NCBI GenBank assembly: GCA_041608535.1
Contig: JBFISM010000003.1
Coordinates: 892 to 64,891 of the forward strand
Reading direction: 5' to 3'
DNA: 64,000 nucleotides
Origin: Acidimicrobiia bacterium
GTDB lineage: Bacteria; Actinomycetota; Acidimicrobiia; Spongiisociales; UBA5794
Positions 21,911 through 43,110 of this stretch are shown here, in pieces; position 1 is the stretch's first letter, and each line of letters begins with the position of its first letter. Under the pieces are notes generated by a model. That model was given only the letters and a program-made list of their open reading frames with translations. It was not told where the DNA came from and made no database searches. A program made the position numbers and the translations under genes.

Positions 21911-23620
21911 ATGAGCCAGCTCCGGGTTGCGTGCGCCCAGATCGACACGCGGGTCGGTGATTTCGAGTGGAACACGGCCAAGATCCTCGAGTCCATGGCG
22001 TACGCCGACGGGGTGGACGCCGACGTGCTCCTTCTCCCCGAGCTCGCCATCTGTGGCTACCCACCCGAGGACCTGCTGCTTCGCGGGTCATTCACCGAGG
22101 CGAACCGCGAGGCTCTCGAGCGCATCGCGGCACAGTCCGGGCAGGTCGCGGTGGTGGTGGGGTTCGTCGATCGGGTCGCCGGCGCGACCAGCGACGATGC
22201 GGTGTCGCGACGTATCGCCAACGCTGCGGCCGTCGTCGCCGGCGGCTCTGTGGTCGGGGTGTATCACAAGGTGCTCCTCCCCAACTATGGAGTCTTCGAC
22301 GAGGCCCGCTACTTTGCGGTCGGTCGGCAACGCACCACGCTGTGGTCCATTGCCGGTGTCACCGCTGGTGTGTCGGTGTGCGAGGACATCTGGTCACCCA
22401 CCGGCCCGCCCGCCCACCAGGCGGCTGCGGGTGCGCAGATCCTGCTGAACATCAACGGGTCGCCCTATCACGTGGGCAAGGCCGGCGAGCGAGCCGGCTT
22501 GCTCTCCGCCGAGGCTCGCCGCTCCGGCGTACCCGTCGTCTACCTGAACATGGTTGGGGGGCAGGACGAGCTCGTCTTCGATGGTGACTCCATGGTGATC
22601 GACAGCAGCGGCGATCTCATCCATCGCGCACCGCAATTCGCAGTGGATCACTTCGTGGTCGACGTGCCGGTGCCACCGGGACGGGCGGGGGAGCCCGCAG
22701 AGCTGGTTTCTGTCACCCCGTCTCGTTCCGAGGCGAAGGTGAGCATCCCAGCGCCGGTGATCGTTCCCACGATGAACATGGAGGAGGAGGTCTACACGGC
22801 CCTGGTGACCGGGCTCCGTGATTACGTGGAGAAGAACGGATTCTCCGACGTCGTGATCGGGCTGAGCGGGGGTATCGACAGCGCTCTCACAGCGGCGATC
22901 GCAACCGACGCCCTCGGACCGGGCGCAGTGTGGGGCATCACGATGCCGACACGGTACAGCTCGGAGGGGTCGATCACCGATTCCGAGGACCTGGCGAAGC
23001 GGTTGGGCATACGCTTCGACATCATCCCCATCGACCCGGTGTTCGCTGAGTTCCTCGAGGCGCTCGAGGTCGCCTTTGCCGGAACCGACATGGGTGTGGC
23101 TGAGGAGAATCTCCAGGCGCGCATCCGCGGGGCGATACTGATGGCGATCTCCAACAAGTTCGGGGGCATGGTGGTCGCCACCGGCAACAAGTCGGAGATG
23201 GCCGTCGGCTACGCCACGCTGTACGGCGACATGGCAGGTGGCTTTGCCGTTCTGAAGGATGTGTTCAAGACGCTCGTCTACCGGCTTGCCGAGTGGCGTA
23301 ACCAACAAGACGAGGTGATCCCGCGCACCATCATCGACAAGCCGCCGTCGGCCGAGCTGCGTCCCGATCAGAAAGACACCGACTCGCTGCCGGAATACGA
23401 GGTACTCGATGCCGTGCTGCGTCGTTACATCGAGCTGGACATGGCCGTCGGTGAGATCGTCGCCGAGGGATTGGGTGCGGAGCTGGTGCGACGGGTGGCG
23501 GCCATGGTGGACAGGAACGAGTACAAGCGTCGACAGGCCGCCCCGGGAGTACGGATCACACGGAAAGCCTTCGGTAGGGATCGGCGGCTTCCCATCACCA
23601 ACGCGTATCGCACACCGTGA
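21911..23620 (+). CDS. nadE: Glutamine-dependent NAD+ synthetase
   Basis: Nitrilase domain (PEL..GYPPEDL, KVLLPNYGVFDE, CEDIW) + GLSGGIDS, ENLQARIRG, TGNKSE, YATLYGD, KPPSAEL. Confidence 0.96.
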   Translation: MSQLRVACAQIDTRVGDFEWNTAKILESMAYADGVDADVLLLPELAICGYPPEDLLLRGSFTEANREALERIAAQSGQVAVVVGFVDRVAGATSDDAVSRRIANAAAVVAGGSVVGVYHKVLLPNYGVFDEARYFAVGRQRTTLWSIAGVTAGVSVCEDIWSPTGPPAHQAAAGAQILLNINGSPYHVGKAGERAGLLSAEARRSGVPVVYLNMVGGQDELVFDGDSMVIDSSGDLIHRAPQFAVDHFVVDVPVPPGRAGEPAELVSVTPSRSEAKVSIPAPVIVPTMNMEEEVYTALVTGLRDYVEKNGFSDVVIGLSGGIDSALTAAIATDALGPGAVWGITMPTRYSSEGSITDSEDLAKRLGIRFDIIPIDPVFAEFLEALEVAFAGTDMGVAEENLQARIRGAILMAISNKFGGMVVATGNKSEMAVGYATLYGDMAGGFAVLKDVFKTLVYRLAEWRNQQDEVIPRTIIDKPPSAELRPDQKDTDSLPEYEVLDAVLRRYIELDMAVGEIVAEGLGAELVRRVAAMVDRNEYKRRQAAPGVRITRKAFGRDRRLPITNAYRTP

Positions 23621-27203: not shown

Positions 27204-28253
27204 ATGAGGCTCACGGAGTTCTCGCACGGGGCCGGTTGAGCGTGCAAGCTCAGCCCTGACGAGCTGGCGCAGGTCTTGCGCCGATTGAACAGCACATTGC
27301 CCACCGCTCCCGAGGTCGTGGTCGGCATCGCCGAGTCGGACGACGCCGGGGTGTACCGCCTCCGCGACGATCTCTATCTCGTGCAAACGGTGGATTTCTT
27401 CACCCCCATCGTGGACGATGCGGCTACCTGGGGGCGGATCAGCGCGACCAATGCGCTGTCGGATGTGTATGCGATGGGGGCCCAGCCGCTCACCGCACTC
27501 TCCATCGTGGGATGGCCCCGGGAGACGCTGTCGCTCGAGCTGCTCGGTGATGTGCTTGCGGGTGGCAGCGAGGTGCTCGCCGCAGCCGGCTGTGTGCTCC
27601 TCGGCGGACACACCGTCGACGACCCCGAGCCGAAGTACGGCCTCGCCGTCACCGGTCTGGTACATCCCGACGACCTCATCACCAACGACGCTGCCAAACC
27701 CGGGGACGTGCTGGTGCTCACCAAACCGATAGGTACCGGGATCGTGGCGACGGCGATCAAACGTGGGGACGTGGATCCGTCCGTAGCGGCGGCGGCGATT
27801 GCGGTGATGACCACTCTCAACGCAGGAGCCGCCAGGGCGATGCAGCGCATTGGGGTGAGAGCCGCCACGGACGTGACGGGCTTTGGTCTGCTCGGTCACC
27901 TCGGCGAGCTGATTCGCGCCTCACGGGTGAGCGCCGAGATCACCGCCGCGGCCATCCCGCTCCTCGATGGTGTGGAGGAACTCATCGCCGCCGGCGTGGT
28001 ACCCGGTGGCACGCTCCGCAATCTGGAAGCTGTGCGCCGGTTCACCACCTTTGGCGATCTCCCCGAGAGCATCCGCATCGCCCTGGCGGATGCGCAGACC
28101 GCCGGTGGGCTTCTCATCGCGGTCGAGGCGCCGCTCGCCGATGCCCTGCTCCAAGCGCTGGCAGAGGAAGGTGCCGGCGGGGTGCGTATCGGTAGGCTCG
28201 TTGCCCGCGAGTTCTCCGATGGACCGGCGGGGAGAATCAGGGTGGCGGCGTGA
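27204..28253 (+). CDS. selD: Selenide, water dikinase, selenocysteine-containing (UGA at 27237-27239)
   Basis: SD GGAGGT then MRLTEFSHGAG-UGA-ACKL (U-x-x-K catalytic motif), continuing in frame to DDAGVY, TVDFFTPIVDD, NALSDVYAMG, GGHT, TDVTGFGLLGHL, DAQTAGGLL. Confidence 0.96.
27266..27282 (+). promoter_or_regulatory. Candidate SECIS hairpin of selD
   Basis: GGCGCA-GGTCT-TGCGCC starting 26 nt after the UGA; loop begins with GG. Confidence 0.7.
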
Positions 28254-38396: not shown

Positions 38397-39398
38397 TCAG
38401 CTCGACGTGATGGTGACGGTGGTGGTGAGGTTGGTAGCACCGTCCCACCGCCAGGTGCCTATCAGCGTGTGCACCCCCGGTGTCAGCTTGATCGGCGTCG
38501 AGGTCCACGTTCGCTCGGTGCGGTCCGAGAAGCTGTCGGTGGTGAGAGTGGTCGTCACGGCGTTGCCGTCGAAGGTCAACCTGAAGTCGGTCGTTGCCGA
38601 CTCGAACTCATCGAGCTCCGCATCCGTCGCCGGCAGCGCTTGATACCACCCCTCGCGTACCAGGAAGCTGCGCCCGGCCGGTATCGAGATGGTGGAGCTG
38701 CACACGGTCAGCTCCTCGTTGCAGCTCACGCTCTCGCGAATGGCGAGCCGGTTGAGCACGGCGGGAAGGTCGAGCGCCCGCTTCAAGAAGGTGGCCATCT
38801 CGGCGCGAGTCACGGGTTGGAACGGGCAGAAGCGATCGTTGTCCGGGGGGTTGCAGCCTTTGGTGATATCTGCGGCGGCGATGGCGTTGATCGACGTGCG
38901 GTGGACGGTGAAGGCGGTGTCGACGAAGGGTCCCGTGTCGAGCGGACTGAGCTCCAGGATGCGGATGAGGAACGTCGCCATCTCGCCCCGCGACACGGGG
39001 TCGTCCGGGCAGTACGTCATCGCCTCCGGTGGACCACAGCCAACCGTTATCTGATTGGCGGCGAGCTTGGCGATGTCCGCGGCGAACAGGTGCCCGGTCG
39101 TGTCGACGAAGGCCGAGTCATTCGGTCCGGTCAGCTCGAATGCCCGGACGAGAAAAGCCGCCATCTCACCGCGGGTCACCGAGCGATCCGGGCAGAACCG
39201 ATCGTTGTCCGGAGGGTTGCAACCTTTGGTGATCCCCGCAGCGGCGATGGCGTTGATCGCCGGCTCGTGGATCGACCAGTCGTCGTCCCAGAAGGCCGAG
39301 TCCACCTCGACGGCATCAGCCACTTGAACTCCGGCAAGGGCAAAGACCAACGTGGCCGCCAGGACGACGGAGCCGAGCAGCTTGGCACGTGCCGTCAC
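38397..39398 (-). CDS. Secreted S-layer homology (SLH) domain protein
   Basis: Signal peptide; three repeats such as GITKGCNPPDNDRFCPDRSVTRGEMAAFL; C-terminal beta domain. Confidence 0.87.
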   Translation of the reverse strand: MTARAKLLGSVVLAATLVFALAGVQVADAVEVDSAFWDDDWSIHEPAINAIAAAGITKGCNPPDNDRFCPDRSVTRGEMAAFLVRAFELTGPNDSAFVDTTGHLFAADIAKLAANQITVGCGPPEAMTYCPDDPVSRGEMATFLIRILELSPLDTGPFVDTAFTVHRTSINAIAAADITKGCNPPDNDRFCPFQPVTRAEMATFLKRALDLPAVLNRLAIRESVSCNEELTVCSSTISIPAGRSFLVREGWYQALPATDAELDEFESATTDFRLTFDGNAVTTTLTTDSFSDRTERTWTSTPIKLTPGVHTLIGTWRWDGATNLTTTVTITSS

Positions 39399-39886
39399 GT
39401 CGCCTCGATGCTGGCGAGCACCGCATTCACCACCGGGATCTCGTCGGCTCGGTCCACGTGACTCCCCAGTACGACGTACAGCGAGAAGGGGCGCCCGGCG
39501 ATGGTGAAGAACCGCTGGGCACCGGTGGCGCCGAACCGGGGAACGTGGACCGCATCGGGATCGAAGTCGGTAGCACGCAGCGCCGGAACCCCGGTGGCGG
39601 CGAACAGAGGTTGTGTCGCCGACTCCGGGTCGAATTCGACGAGCGTGATCAGTGCGTCCCCGCTGCGCATCGTCTCGATGGCGCCATCGCCGTAGTCACC
39701 GCGCACCGGTGGAAGGGGAAAGTTGGCGAAATGCGCCACCACCCGACGAATCGAGCCGTCGGGGCGCATCACCGGCTCGGCGGGCTTGCTGGTATCGAGC
39801 GCTCGCCAGGCACCGTCACCGGAATCGATGGAAGCCTCCCACCCCGGCGGAAGATCGACGGCGATGCCCCGACCCGATACCTGCAT
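39395..39886 (-). CDS. Hypothetical protein of the Mau-like operon
   Basis: TGATG overlap with upstream gene; MQVSGRGIAVDLPPGWEA...HFANFPLPP...QRFFTIAGRPFSLYVVLGS. Confidence 0.75.
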   Translation of the reverse strand: MQVSGRGIAVDLPPGWEASIDSGDGAWRALDTSKPAEPVMRPDGSIRRVVAHFANFPLPPVRGDYGDGAIETMRSGDALITLVEFDPESATQPLFAATGVPALRATDFDPDAVHVPRFGATGAQRFFTIAGRPFSLYVVLGSHVDRADEIPVVNAVLASIEAT

Positions 39887-40539
39887 CAGATCACTCGACT
39901 CAGGGCAGAGAGAGCAACGGCGACGGCGGCCAGCGGTGTCAGCAGGCGAACTCGAGGCCCGAGCTGCGCCATGGTGCGGTGGAACCTCCCCAGACGGCTG
40001 GGACGGTCGATCCATCGTGCAGCTACCAAAGGAGCCGCTCGGAGGGAACCGAATCCGGCGCCGACCACCGTGCCACCCGTGATCGATCCGGTCAGTATGG
40101 CGGCGGCTGCGCTGGCATACAGGAGCCAGGTCACGATGTAGGTGGCGCCACCGGCGCCGAGCTGGGCCCCAAAACCGGCGCCGTACACCCAACCGCGCAG
40201 CGAGCCGATCCAGCGTTCATCGACCTGGCGCTGCGGACCCGGTGGCGACACACCGGACAGGTCGAGTGCGGCGGCGACAACGACTGTGGCGCCGAGCACT
40301 CCGAGCCGAGGGGCGGCGGGCATCGCCAGCATCGTGCCCACCGCACCGAGCAACGCTCCAGCGACGGCGCCCGCCGCGATCGCAGCGAGAAGGAAGGCGC
40401 CGACCGTGAGACCCCAGCGGTTGTGCCGTGCCCGCTCGCCGAGCGGGTGGATGCTGGAGAGCATCGACTCTCCTCAAGGAGACCACTGGCTGCGAGCTGC
40501 CGCTGCCATTGCGATCGCCACCCCCAAGGCGATGATCAT
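39886..40539 (-). CDS. MauF/DsbD-like membrane protein with predicted selenocysteine (U22, UGA at 40474-40476)
   Basis: ATG overlaps upstream stop (ATGA); MIIALGVAIAMAAAARSQWSP-UGA-GESMLSSIHP continues in frame into a multi-TM body with RQVDERW, GFGAQLG; SPCG-like motif with U in place of C. Confidence 0.8.
40431..40447 (-). promoter_or_regulatory. Candidate SECIS hairpin of the MauF-like gene
   Basis: CCCGCTC-GGC-GAGCGGG starting 26 nt after the UGA, same spacing as in selD; GGAGAG/CTCTCC stem directly after the UGA. Confidence 0.65.
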
Positions 40540-41270
40540 GGTGCGGGATCCTGTACCGGATCGGTCCACAGGCTGGGATCGGCCGGAGTGATGCCATGTT
40601 TGCGCAGCACGTCGTCTGTGTGTCGGATCCGTTCGGCGGTGGTCGAGCGCGATCCCGGTGGAGCGTCGAAATCTGCTGCGACACTCTCGTCCCCGACGGC
40701 GTCGGCGAGCATCCGGCTCACCCGGCGCCACGAGGGACCGCTCCCTTCGCCGATGACCGCGCCGGTGCCGGCATCGACGAGCACGAAGAACGGTGAGGCG
40801 GGAACGCCGAAGTCATCCCAGGCCCGAGACGACATCACGACGCTGCAACGGGACCCGGCGAGATCGGCGATGGCGCTGGGGCTTTCCTCGCTCGGGTCTC
40901 GGGTCACGATGACGAGACGCATGTCGCCTTGCGGAAGGTCCACCCCTTCGCGGAACGAACGCCAGAACGGCTGACAGGCGGTGCAGGTCGACGACATGAA
41001 CGCGATCACGGTGAGCCCGCGCGTTGCCGTGAGAGCGATGGTTACGGTGCCACCGGCGGGGGTGACGCCGATGATCGCTTCGGCTGGTGGCATGGCGGCG
41101 GGACGCAGAGTGAAAACGCCGCCCGCAATTGTCCGGCTTCCCGCGGTCTCCTCGCCGCCGTCGAGAGCATGTAAACGACGGAGGATCTCGGCATGGCTGC
41201 GGAGCAGACCGGCCACGAGCACCACGAGCAGTGCGATCACCACCGCCTCGATGATCACCAGGACCGTCAC
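40536..41270 (-). CDS. MauD-like membrane-anchored thioredoxin-fold protein
   Basis: TM then LLRSHAEILRRL; FMSSTCTAC (CxxC); VPASPFFVLVD. Confidence 0.82.
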   Translation of the reverse strand: MTVLVIIEAVVIALLVVLVAGLLRSHAEILRRLHALDGGEETAGSRTIAGGVFTLRPAAMPPAEAIIGVTPAGGTVTIALTATRGLTVIAFMSSTCTACQPFWRSFREGVDLPQGDMRLVIVTRDPSEESPSAIADLAGSRCSVVMSSRAWDDFGVPASPFFVLVDAGTGAVIGEGSGPSWRRVSRMLADAVGDESVAADFDAPPGSRSTTAERIRHTDDVLRKHGITPADPSLWTDPVQDPAP

Positions 41271-42586
41271 GGCTCCACTCCCCAGACCACCGGAATGTCT
41301 CCGGGCCCACCGAACTCGAAGCTGATGTCGGGCGGTCCCGCCGCCAGCGATGTGCGCAAGTCCCACGTGCCGTTGTCGAACCTGCCCGGCAGATCGCGAC
41401 CCTGTGCGTCCCAGTCACCCACGACGGGCGCGGCTGCGGCGGCACCGAAGTCGAACTCCACCGTGGGTCCCGTCGCCTCGAATGTGTTGAGCAGAATCCA
41501 ACGAGATCCCCGGACCACGCCCGGTGTGTCGACACCGTCGCCGTTCCAATCGCCGACGACGGGCACATCGCCAGTCTCGCCGAACTCGACCTCAGTCACC
41601 GAACCACCGGTGAGGCTACTGCGGAGCAGCCAGGTCCCGTTGCGGTACACACCGGGTGTGTCGACACCGTCGCCGTTCCAATCGCCGGCGAGTGGGACGT
41701 CTCCGTGCCGGCCGAACTCGAACACGATGTCGGGAGTGCCTCCACCGGCGATCTGTCGTACCAGCCACGTCAGCGGACCGGCGGGCAGCACCCCGTGGCG
41801 AGAGCCGCGGACGACCGCAATGGTTTCGAGACCGGACCCCGACCAATCGGCCATCAGGGGCAGATCACCGGCGAGCCCGTAGCTGAACACATCGGTAGAT
41901 GCATCGGCGGATAGCTCGTCGGCAACGGTGAACACGTTCCCGGTGACCACCGCGGGTTTCGCCCGACGGACCACGGAGGGATGGAGACATGGTGCATCGT
42001 GGAACGCGGTCGCGTCGTTACGCGCATCGGCGGTGGTGCAGGTCGAGTCGAACTCCCACGGCGGCAGGCAGCTGACCACCCGACATTCGATGGGGCCGAG
42101 ACAGGCGTATTGCTGGTTGCATTGGCCATAGCGGAACCGGGTGCAGCAAGCTTTGCGTAAGTTGCAGTCGTCGTTGGCGCAACCACAGCTGCAGTCGACA
42201 CACGTGTGGGCACACGTTCCCGACGAGCCACAGCCGCATCCGCCGCAATCGAGGGCGTTGCAGTCCATGTAGTAGCGCGACGCCCCTCCACAGAAGCCGG
42301 AGCCTTCGGCGCGCCACCAGCCGGCGACCACCGTGCCCGGTGGGCACGTGTTTGCACCGTGGATCTCGCAACAAAAGGCGGTGAATCCACTGCAGCACAG
42401 CGATCCCGGGGGGCAGTCCGAGCACCCGACGACGATGCGCGAGTACGCCGTGCCCGGTCGCAGCGCATACGTGACAGGGGCAGTTGCCAGTGCCGAACCC
42501 ACGATGGCGGCCCTGCGCAGAAAACCACGTCGCGTGGTGCGCTGTTCGAGGAACGTCGCCGCAGCATCGACGAGGCGGGTGCTCAC
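41267..42586 (-). CDS. Tat-exported Cys-rich protein with C-terminal GDWNGDG (FG-GAP-like) repeats
   Basis: TRRGFLRR twin-arginine signal; 26 Cys in about 150 aa; four full and one partial GDxPxxGDWxGDG repeats. Confidence 0.85.
   Translation of the reverse strand: MSTRLVDAAATFLEQRTTRRGFLRRAAIVGSALATAPVTYALRPGTAYSRIVVGCSDCPPGSLCCSGFTAFCCEIHGANTCPPGTVVAGWWRAEGSGFCGGASRYYMDCNALDCGGCGCGSSGTCAHTCVDCSCGCANDDCNLRKACCTRFRYGQCNQQYACLGPIECRVVSCLPPWEFDSTCTTADARNDATAFHDAPCLHPSVVRRAKPAVVTGNVFTVADELSADASTDVFSYGLAGDLPLMADWSGSGLETIAVVRGSRHGVLPAGPLTWLVRQIAGGGTPDIVFEFGRHGDVPLAGDWNGDGVDTPGVYRNGTWLLRSSLTGGSVTEVEFGETGDVPVVGDWNGDGVDTPGVVRGSRWILLNTFEATGPTVEFDFGAAAAAPVVGDWDAQGRDLPGRFDNGTWDLRTSLAAGPPDISFEFGGPGDIPVVWGVEP
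41523..41687. repeat. 33-bp exact direct repeat inside the Cys-rich gene
   Basis: GGTGTGTCGACACCGTCGCCGTTCCAATCGCCG at 41523-41555 and 41655-41687 (encodes GDWNGDGVDTP). Confidence 0.85.
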
Positions 42587-43110
42587 CGCACCCCACCTGA
42601 AGGGAGACGAGCCGCTGCGTGGAGCCGGGGCAGGCGATCGACGATCAGGAACAGGGTGGTTGCCCCGGCGCCGAGCAGGATGAGGTAAGGCACACCCCAG
42701 ATCGGCTGGTCGGCGACGGTGGTGGGTAGCGAAGGCGGTCCGCTAGCGGCCATGGCGGCCGCCGCAACTGCAATCGCTGCATTCATGACCACATGGAGCC
42801 TCGAGGGCGGCGCATCGGGCACCCCAAAGCACCCGCATCGTGCCGCATCACCCTGCCGCCACAGCGCCACCGCCACGAAGCCGGTGAAGCTCGCATAGAG
42901 CAACGCCAGGGAGAGGGCCGCCGCACTACCCCCGGCGACGCATACCGCAACACCACTGGCGATCTCGGCGACGCCGATCGTGATGACGTGTCCGGTGCGG
43001 ACGCTGCTCCACACTCCGGCGAGCGCTGCCACCGTTGGCGCCGGGTTTCGCACTTTGAGGGCACCAGCGACCACGAGGCTGATGGCGGCGATGTGCAGGA
43101 GCCCAACCAC
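42583..43110 (-). CDS. MauE/DoxX family redox-associated membrane protein
   Basis: AGALKVRNP, GVAEIASG, RCGCFG, HVVMN; leaderless start with TAACCT 6 nt upstream. Confidence 0.85.
   Translation of the reverse strand: MVGLLHIAAISLVVAGALKVRNPAPTVAALAGVWSSVRTGHVITIGVAEIASGVAVCVAGGSAAALSLALLYASFTGFVAVALWRQGDAARCGCFGVPDAPPSRLHVVMNAAIAVAAAAMAASGPPSLPTTVADQPIWGVPYLILLGAGATTLFLIVDRLPRLHAAARLPSGGVR

Follow-up and report, generated by a model that had tools for sequence, protein, structure and literature searches.

Which protein is served by homologues of the methylamine dehydrogenase accessory proteins MauE, MauD and MauF when the genes mauB and mauG are not found beside them? This question is raised by a six-gene operon at positions 38397 to 43110 of the 64,000-nucleotide stretch analyzed here (hereafter the window), which covers positions 892 to 64,891 of contig JBFISM010000003.1 of an Acidimicrobiia bacterium (assembly GCA_041608535.1). 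The accessory trio, with MauF in a selenocysteine (Sec) form, appears to serve a new wall-anchored client, a function that we infer. The operon is probably a self-contained, horizontally patchy cassette acting as a dedicated extracytoplasmic oxidative-folding kit for this cysteine-rich protein.

Operon structure and conservation

The operon consists of six genes, referred to as A to F:

42583 to 43110, minus strand: gene A, MauE homologue, 175 amino acids (aa)
41267 to 42586, minus strand: gene B, client, 439 aa, exported by twin-arginine translocation (Tat), 26 Cys, lectin-like beta-propeller
40536 to 41270, minus strand: gene C, MauD homologue, 244 aa, GTG start
39886 to 40539, minus strand: gene D, MauF homologue, 217 aa with UGA-22 read through
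39395 to 39886, minus strand: gene E, conserved protein, 163 aa
38397 to 39398, minus strand: gene F, S-layer homology (SLH) protein, 333 aa

The six open reading frames (ORFs) lie head to tail from 43110 to 38397, and all of their coordinates were reproduced. Stop and start codons overlap at all five junctions, as a preliminary description of the sequence had reported; in the order A to F, the overlaps are GTGA, GTGA, ATGA, TGATG and GTGA. The operon is real and the observation is confirmed. Its upstream neighbor is a divergent gene on the plus strand, and a methyltransferase-like gene in convergent orientation follows downstream.

An operon conservation survey, one of the checks named in that description, found the order MauE, client, MauD, MauF and gene E kept in most of 80 loci fetched from other species (tblastn with the six proteins). 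The recurrence of an identical gene order in other species indicates that the arrangement is more than chance. More distant cassettes have a client that is short or carries another tail, and they have no SLH gene. The MauF homologue was present in 21 of 61 related genomes and missing from 40. It is single-copy in its own genome, and the genes flanking the operon in the window are not conserved alongside it. The core of five genes is conserved, has a patchy distribution and moves separately from its flanking genes. A plasmid collection searched with MauE gave no match.

The host genome is a metagenome-assembled genome (MAG) that is 88% complete. MauB, MauG and PF02975 (canonical MauA) were detected neither in the window nor in the whole genome, and tblastn with real MauB, MauG, MauA, MauJ and MauL gave nothing in the genome. 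MauB and MauG were also not detected in five cassette-bearing relatives. The operon can therefore still be called an orphan after the genome search, and the absence of MauB, MauG and PF02975 from the genome indicates that it does not encode an ordinary amine dehydrogenase.

Selenocysteine in the MauF homologue

Three features of gene D bear on the reading of its in-frame stop codon:

40474 to 40476, minus strand: codon 22 of the MauF homologue, UGA almost certainly read as Sec (TGA/Cys alternation, hairpin, Sec machinery)
40465 to 40450, minus strand: hairpin 1, GAUGCU-N4-AGCAUC, +9 to +24 after the UGA
40447 to 40431, minus strand: hairpin 2, CCCGCUC-GGC-GAGCGGG, +27 to +43 after the UGA

The in-frame TGA is codon 22 of gene D, and the whole protein contains no Cys. 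A database search with the read-through protein gave more than 1,400 relatives, nearly all annotated with 187 to 198 aa and starting with MLSSIHPLGER directly after the UGA; the MauF homologue of the window is itself held in the databases as a truncated protein of 192 aa. A full-length relative of 218 aa (P0119) has Cys at the UGA position, in NWSP-C-GES. Across related loci, the column of Sec22 is TGA in 65 of 76 and TGC or TGT in the other 11. The consensus of the TGA form is A-A-[IV]-R-S-x-W-S-P-TGA-G-E-S-M-L-S-S-I-H-P-L-G-E-R and is preceded by a conserved hydrophobic helix. In the 11 Cys-form loci the frame is continuous and Leu replaces Met26. Canonical MauF also has Cys at the Sec position, its WSPCG corresponding to WSP-U-GES.

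Both hairpins appeared in the RNAalifold consensus of 63 unique UGA-form sequences, the second as CCCGCUC-GGN-GAGCGGG. Canonical pairs made up 98.4% of the pair cells in the UGA forms but 46.9% in the Cys forms, and a compensatory C-G to U-A change in the hairpin stem was found in two sequences. The second hairpin, with its 7-bp stem and GGN loop, is a probable bacterial selenocysteine insertion sequence (SECIS) element. The window also contains selD (27204 to 28253, plus strand), which itself encodes a selenoprotein with GAG-U-ACK (MRLTEFSHGAG-U-ACKLSP). The hairpin of this Sec-selD has a 7-bp stem and a GGUCU loop and begins 27 nucleotides (nt) past the UGA, so that the stem length and UGA offset equal those of the second hairpin of gene D and both loops begin with GG. 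Gene callers split selD at its UGA.

Elsewhere in the genome, tRNA-Sec was found with 71 bits and anticodon TCA (contig C220:398-489, minus strand), and SelB (271 bits) and SelA (409 bits) are encoded by adjacent genes on contig C87:492-2761 (minus strand). The Sec machinery is complete, with selA, selB, selC and selD all in the genome. The TGA/Cys alternation, the conserved upstream peptide, the hairpin confined to UGA forms and the Sec machinery together indicate that the UGA of gene D almost certainly encodes selenocysteine, in agreement with the preliminary description.

It is hardly credible that UGA-22 is instead a real stop, ending a 21-codon upstream ORF before reinitiation at Met26 yields a Cys-free membrane protein of 192 aa. 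Proteins of about 190 aa beginning with MLSSIHPLGER are annotated by gene callers in hundreds of genomes, and the window has a Shine-Dalgarno-like GGAG 5 nt ahead of the Met26 ATG, three codons past the UGA. However, this GGAG is merely the Gly-Glu codons, which vary as GGN GAR, and the 11 Cys loci keep the frame open with Leu where Met26 would be. The peptide encoded by the 21 codons before the UGA is conserved and can be aligned with helix 1 and the WSPCG of MauF, and the presence of the hairpin and of a complete Sec machinery is also at odds with a true stop.

Homology to MauE, MauD and MauF

By motif and profile comparison, genes A, C and D are true homologues of MauE, MauD and MauF, as had been proposed. 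Gene A matched the Pfam MauE family PF07291 with an E value of 3e-12 and 47.4 bits, against a cutoff of 27 (49.2 bits in the genome search), and is the sole MauE above the cutoff in the genome. It encodes a polytopic membrane protein with the motif R-C92-G-C94-F-G, and BLASTP to canonical MauE aligned the CGC region. Lys19 (GALKVRN, hydrophobic segment 1) and Glu49 (GVAEIAS, segment 2) can be lined up by eye with AALPKLR and LPLVELA of canonical MauE. A second tblastn match to MauE, at 22425 to 22721 of the window, is spurious and lies inside a NAD synthetase gene.

MauE proteins complement Escherichia coli dsbB, have an active site of CXC followed by F-G together with a conserved Lys in helix 1 and Glu in helix 2 close to the predicted quinone site, and probably use a quinone and a thioredoxin-fold partner (bioRxiv 10.64898/2026.03.05.709764). 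Gene A belongs to the same Pfam family and shares the CGC-F-G motif and a thioredoxin-superfamily partner, and its Lys19 and Glu49 may correspond to the conserved Lys and Glu. The published MauE is argued to be a generalist oxidase, with MauA in only about 10% of MauE-bearing species, and MauF is not mentioned there (bioRxiv 10.64898/2026.03.05.709764), whereas the MauE of the window is locked in a cassette with MauF and one client.

The family profile of gene C matched canonical MauD with an hhalign probability of 96.3% (E 1.5e-9, 104 columns); the reference mau cluster for profile comparison was L097 (mauF-B-E-D-A-C-J-G-L). The protein has an N-terminal membrane anchor and a thioredoxin fold with C96-T-A-C99, in which both Cys are invariant, and its hydrophobic N terminus is conserved. 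Weak profile matches were to TlpA/DsbC-type PDB chains and Thioredoxin_2. Gene C had no NCBIfam match at E<=1, including the MauD equivalog TIGR02661, which canonical MauD matches with 373 bits. The C-terminal tail of gene C is conserved as L-x-x-A-G-I-x-P-G-D-P-S-L-Y and absent from the local alignment with canonical MauD. It may be a docking motif.

The gene D family matched canonical MauF with an hhalign probability of 98.1% (E 9e-14, 154 columns, 32% identity), with S-T-W-S-P-C-G of MauF aligned on S-Q-W-S-P-U-G. When canonical MauF was the tblastn query, gene D was the only match in the genome (E 1.5e-7), and the alignment spanned the UGA. DsbD_2 (PF13386) was matched weakly by 12 of 20 gene D family members and HupE_UreJ_2 weakly by one. 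The motif IHPLGE that follows Sec, including His31 and Glu35, is invariant. A PDB profile search with the MauF family gave no match and thus no sequence-detectable relative with a solved structure; NCBIfam contains no model for MauF, and none of its models matches gene D.

All three accessory proteins of the mau cluster (mauFBEDACJGLMN in Methylorubrum and Paracoccus) have homologues in the operon, where the trio adjoins a Tat-exported, disulfide-dense protein in the place of mauA. In contrast to that cluster, the operon lacks MauB, MauG, amicyanin, MauJ and MauL, the client falls outside the PF02975 light chains, and an extra conserved gene of 163 aa is present. The MauF of the window uses Sec and lacks the N-terminal extension, its MauD falls below TIGR02661, and the host is a Gram-positive-type actinobacterium with a wall-anchored client. 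On contig C129:7711-9324 (plus strand) of the same genome, the canonical MauC query found five tandem cupredoxin (amicyanin-like) domains in one frame.

Gene D encodes a polytopic membrane protein that shares its superfamily with DsbD and CcdA, as the weak PF13386 matches indicate, and like them has a thioredoxin-fold partner outside the membrane. The SP-C/U motif that ends its helix 1 resembles the SPC of CcdA. DsbD and CcdA work with a pair of redox cysteines, located in helices 1 and 4, whereas gene D has a single Sec and no Cys, and the family alignment has no second invariant Cys.

The cysteine-rich client

The client encoded by gene B has three parts:

42446 to 42586, minus strand: Tat leader, residues 1 to 47, a helix followed by RTTRRGFL, a hydrophobic core and an AYS/AYA-type cleavage region
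41972 to 42445, minus strand: Cys-rich head, approximately residues 48 to 205, with 26 Cys
41267 to 41971 (stop codon included), minus strand: C-terminal beta-propeller with FG-GAP-like repeats and GDWNGDG

Gene B matched the Tat signal model TIGR01409 with 17.4 bits (cutoff, 16.7). Its Cys total is exactly 26, all within residues 55 to 200. The head contains the invariant elements GWW, RYY-DC, FRYGQCN and CRVVTC-PPW (alignments A2 to A4) and had no sequence match in Pfam, NCBIfam or PDB. A profile of the head domain collected 485 clusters at 50% identity, in which the head always directly follows the Tat leader and the tails are variable. In a sample of long relatives, three CWB2 domains, LGFP repeats or DUF4214 take the propeller's place. 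The constant head and variable tails indicate that the head represents the conserved, functional portion of the protein and the tails are wall anchors that can be exchanged.

In AlphaFold2 models the predicted local distance difference test score was 86.5 for the whole client, 85.9 for the isolated head and above 90 throughout the propeller. The best Foldseek matches of the propeller were 9oee_A, which is UmbA4 from Streptomyces griseus in a complex with bound teichuronic acid (propeller, E 2e-6), and the GlcNAc-binding fungal lectins PVL and AAL. The modeled propeller is thus a probable wall-glycan-binding lectin module. It was also considered as a fused MauB heavy chain; this was rejected, since it has no similarity to MauB and relatives carry wall-binding repeats instead. 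The Tat signal, the lectin-like propeller and the CWB2 or LGFP anchors of relatives argue for a place of the client on the cell surface. The earlier suggestion of a different client thus holds, in the form of a conserved, Cys-rich exported protein that is coinherited with the accessory genes.

In one relative of 624 aa (P0246), a MauE domain (residues 7 to 112) is naturally fused to a Cys-rich head (residues 222 to 388), which provides a "Rosetta stone" link between oxidase and client. Sec forms of MauF are mostly paired with longer, anchored clients. At seven Cys-form loci (L044, L055, L058, L059, L061, L066 and L072) the client consists of the head only, with about 200 aa, and no SLH gene is present. 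Of the remaining four loci with the Cys form, L067 encodes a client of full length that includes the propeller, and no client was found at L051, L077 or L079. At L044, L058 and L059 the MauE, client and MauD genes lie on the strand opposite the MauF homologue.

Proposed function of the cassette and alternatives

The client would be made with its long Tat leader, exported and held on the wall by the lectin-like propeller, while its 26-Cys head would acquire about 13 disulfides. By analogy with DsbB, MauE would act as a quinone-linked disulfide generator through its CGC loop. The MauD-like thioredoxin, anchored in the membrane and bearing CTAC, would carry disulfides to the client, or shuffle them, after Tat export. 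Sec-MauF, whose UGA would be decoded through the hairpin 27 nt downstream, would form a second arm, probably reducing or proofreading, that works via transient Se-S bonds. The product of gene E would help in the cytoplasm, acting as a modifier or as a chaperone that binds the leader, and the SLH protein would be a lineage-specific partner or second client. In this scheme the direction of oxidation and reduction between the partners, the membrane topology and the role of the client are all proposals. The preliminary description had suggested a trans-membrane thiol/selenol relay. Its interpretation is supported in part; with MauE being DsbB-like (bioRxiv 10.64898/2026.03.05.709764), an oxidase, its partner and MauF describe the system better than a single linear relay.

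The loops of the MauF homologue contain 4, 1, 3, 0 and 7 Arg plus Lys residues, which predicts that its N terminus is outside and that Sec22 lies where helix 1 ends on the cytoplasmic side. We take this position to resemble Cys163 of DsbD. With Sec22 at the cytoplasmic end, MauF could plausibly bring in reducing power to isomerize the 13 disulfides.

Several points weigh against a dedicated folding kit of this kind. The cytoplasmic placement of Sec is based on the loop charge count alone. MauF has a single redox residue compared with two in DsbD and CcdA, and a CcdA-like cycle is unfit unless MauF forms a dimer or has a partner; dimerization, a partner cysteine or a transport function would therefore be possible. 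The cassette contains one thioredoxin-fold gene only, for which the oxidizing and the reducing arms would compete. The fold of the isolated head matches nothing significantly; its top Foldseek match, the aromatic amine dehydrogenase light chain 2agw_H (115 of 119 residues), had an E value of 4.9 and a template modeling score of 0.22 to 0.28. The MauB family search was made without a positive control, although tblastn with real MauB was equally empty, and with the MAG 88% complete the absences are not absolute.

The single redox residue would also be consistent with a transporter. The MauF homologue could be a member of the LysE/TauE/DsbD_2 superfamily that transports a small molecule needed for client maturation, be it a thiol, a metal or a compound of sulfur or selenium, with Sec or Cys, His31 and Glu35 lining the path. 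The invariant IHPLGE after Sec and the weak HupE_UreJ_2 match of one family member are consistent with this, homologues are named "sulfite exporter TauE/SafE" by the Joint Genome Institute, and the YeeE/YedE thiosulfate transporter has already been catalogued in a selenoprotein version (PMC13188914). We nevertheless consider transport rather unlikely, with DsbD_2 being the best family match, a disulfide generator and a thioredoxin being the partners, and canonical MauF retaining the Cys yet having Arg at the positions of His31 and Glu35. The MauE, MauD and MauF genes could also be general envelope disulfide machinery, serving for example the genome's SLH proteins with Cys pairs, of which there are more than 25, and the Cys-rich protein could be a mere neighbor or one client among many. 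The generalist MauE of the preprint and the rarity of MauA among MauE-bearing species (about 10%; bioRxiv 10.64898/2026.03.05.709764) would agree with such a role. VKOR was not found in the genome, which encodes many exported proteins with paired Cys. However, a separate DsbB-family domain is encoded elsewhere in the genome (contig C249:1136-1498, plus strand; 53.8 bits), the MauF homologue is missing from 40 of the 61 related genomes, a MauE-head fusion protein exists (P0246), and in nearly all loci the cassette travels with the Cys-rich gene and with it alone. A general role is thus clearly unlikely. The kept gene order, the MauE-head fusion, the spread over 21 of 61 genomes, the unconserved flanks and the separate DsbB all argue that the machinery is dedicated rather than general. 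The DsbB domain on C249 lies inside an open frame of 391 aa, far longer than plain DsbB, and the protein may be a fusion.

Comparison with known selenoproteins and significance

A recent catalogue lists 119 prokaryotic selenoprotein families (Zhang et al. 2026, Table 1; PMC13188914), among which no MauF family or DsbD_2 family with a single Sec is found. Gene D has the features by which catalogued selenoproteins are recognized computationally, namely UGA/Cys alternation, a downstream hairpin and Sec machinery. Other membrane selenoproteins are YeeE/YedE, SaoP and the rhodanese/DsbD fusion TsoB. In Actinomarina, an uncharacterized deep-Sep selenoprotein group matching K07090 has been described from 49 genomes (bioRxiv 10.64898/2026.04.03.716425), and this group is a candidate that may belong to the same family as Sec-MauF. 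The Sec reading of gene D would thus add a membrane selenoprotein family missing from the 2026 catalogue, one that is truncated in well over a thousand public entries.

The repeated exchange of Cys for Sec is strong natural evidence for redox or nucleophilic chemistry at this residue of MauF, and the alternation pinpoints the lone conserved cysteine of MauF as the working residue to mutate. To our knowledge, no function has been assigned to MauF since the mau clusters were sequenced some thirty years ago. Together with the evidence that MauE is an oxidase of the DsbB type, the cassette points to MauE, MauD and MauF as a portable oxidative-folding kit dedicated to its client, here a large family of wall-anchored, cysteine-packed proteins of Actinomycetota.

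Possible relation of the client to MauA

The client resembles the light chains that carry tryptophan tryptophylquinone (TTQ) in its Tat export with an unusually long leader, its dense disulfide core, a G-x-N-x-CPPGT...W motif and a similar early Cys spacing, none of these likenesses being significant. It differs in a Cys count roughly double theirs and in the lack of a MauB or MauG partner. PF02975 was matched neither by the client nor by any of 62 family members at E<=10, and phmmer and profile searches of the head against PDB gave nothing.

In hhalign, the leader of the client family matched the leaders of MauA precursors with 97% probability, compared with 50 to 75% for generic Tat leaders of the same genome, so that the similarity is only modestly above that of other Tat leaders. 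With a hidden Markov model of the MauA leader, the client ranked only 18th among the ORFs of the genome. For the mature parts the probability was 3 to 4%, and the CPPGT motif was all that emerged from comparison with MauA alone or with a profile of 26 MauA sequences. Greedy alignment with a 211-sequence profile (P 0.012, probability 3.7%) placed the invariant GWW opposite the TTQ residue Trp57; the second TTQ Trp is not conserved in this alignment.

These comparisons give a hint only of descent from MauA, the chance of which falls somewhat short of even, and the client is not filed in that family. A more specific version seems quite improbable to us. The head would be a very distant descendant of the TTQ light chains that works without a heavy chain, anchored to the wall and bearing a protein-derived redox cofactor on the GWW Trp (a quinone or a Cys-Trp cross-link) that is formed without MauG, with gene E acting before export and with the help of Sec-MauF. 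The MauF, MauE and MauD trio would on this view be a portable maturase of ancient origin, and methylamine dehydrogenase only one of its clients, and a late one.

The fifth gene and the SLH protein

Gene E had been described merely as hypothetical, but it adjoins the MauF homologue in 76 of 80 loci and belongs to the conserved core of the cassette. Its product has no signal peptide and no Cys and gave no match in Pfam, NCBIfam or PDB. It was considered as MauJ or MauL and rejected for lack of similarity. The protein probably acts on the client in the cytoplasm before export, as a chaperone or modifier, a role that we infer purely.

Gene F matched the SLH family PF00395 (E 1.4e-12) and has a signal peptide. 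Its 8 Cys are arranged in four pairs, one in each of three SLH-type repeats (GC...FCP) and the fourth in the C-terminal domain. The SLH gene lies downstream only at loci with a propeller client and is absent from the more distant cassettes. A 51-locus cluster that appeared to be a conserved neighbor was explained by shared SLH repeats only. Display of the client via the SLH protein, as suggested earlier, is unlikely, as the client has its own wall-binding module and many cassettes lack the SLH gene. Gene F is more likely a lineage-specific partner or second client than a display device.

The genome encodes more than 25 SLH paralogues. They lie on more than 25 contigs (for example C12:25130-30935, C66, C73 and C178) and have triple SLH-type repeats with a GC...FCP pair each, which suggests an SLH-anchored, disulfide-dependent surface layer.

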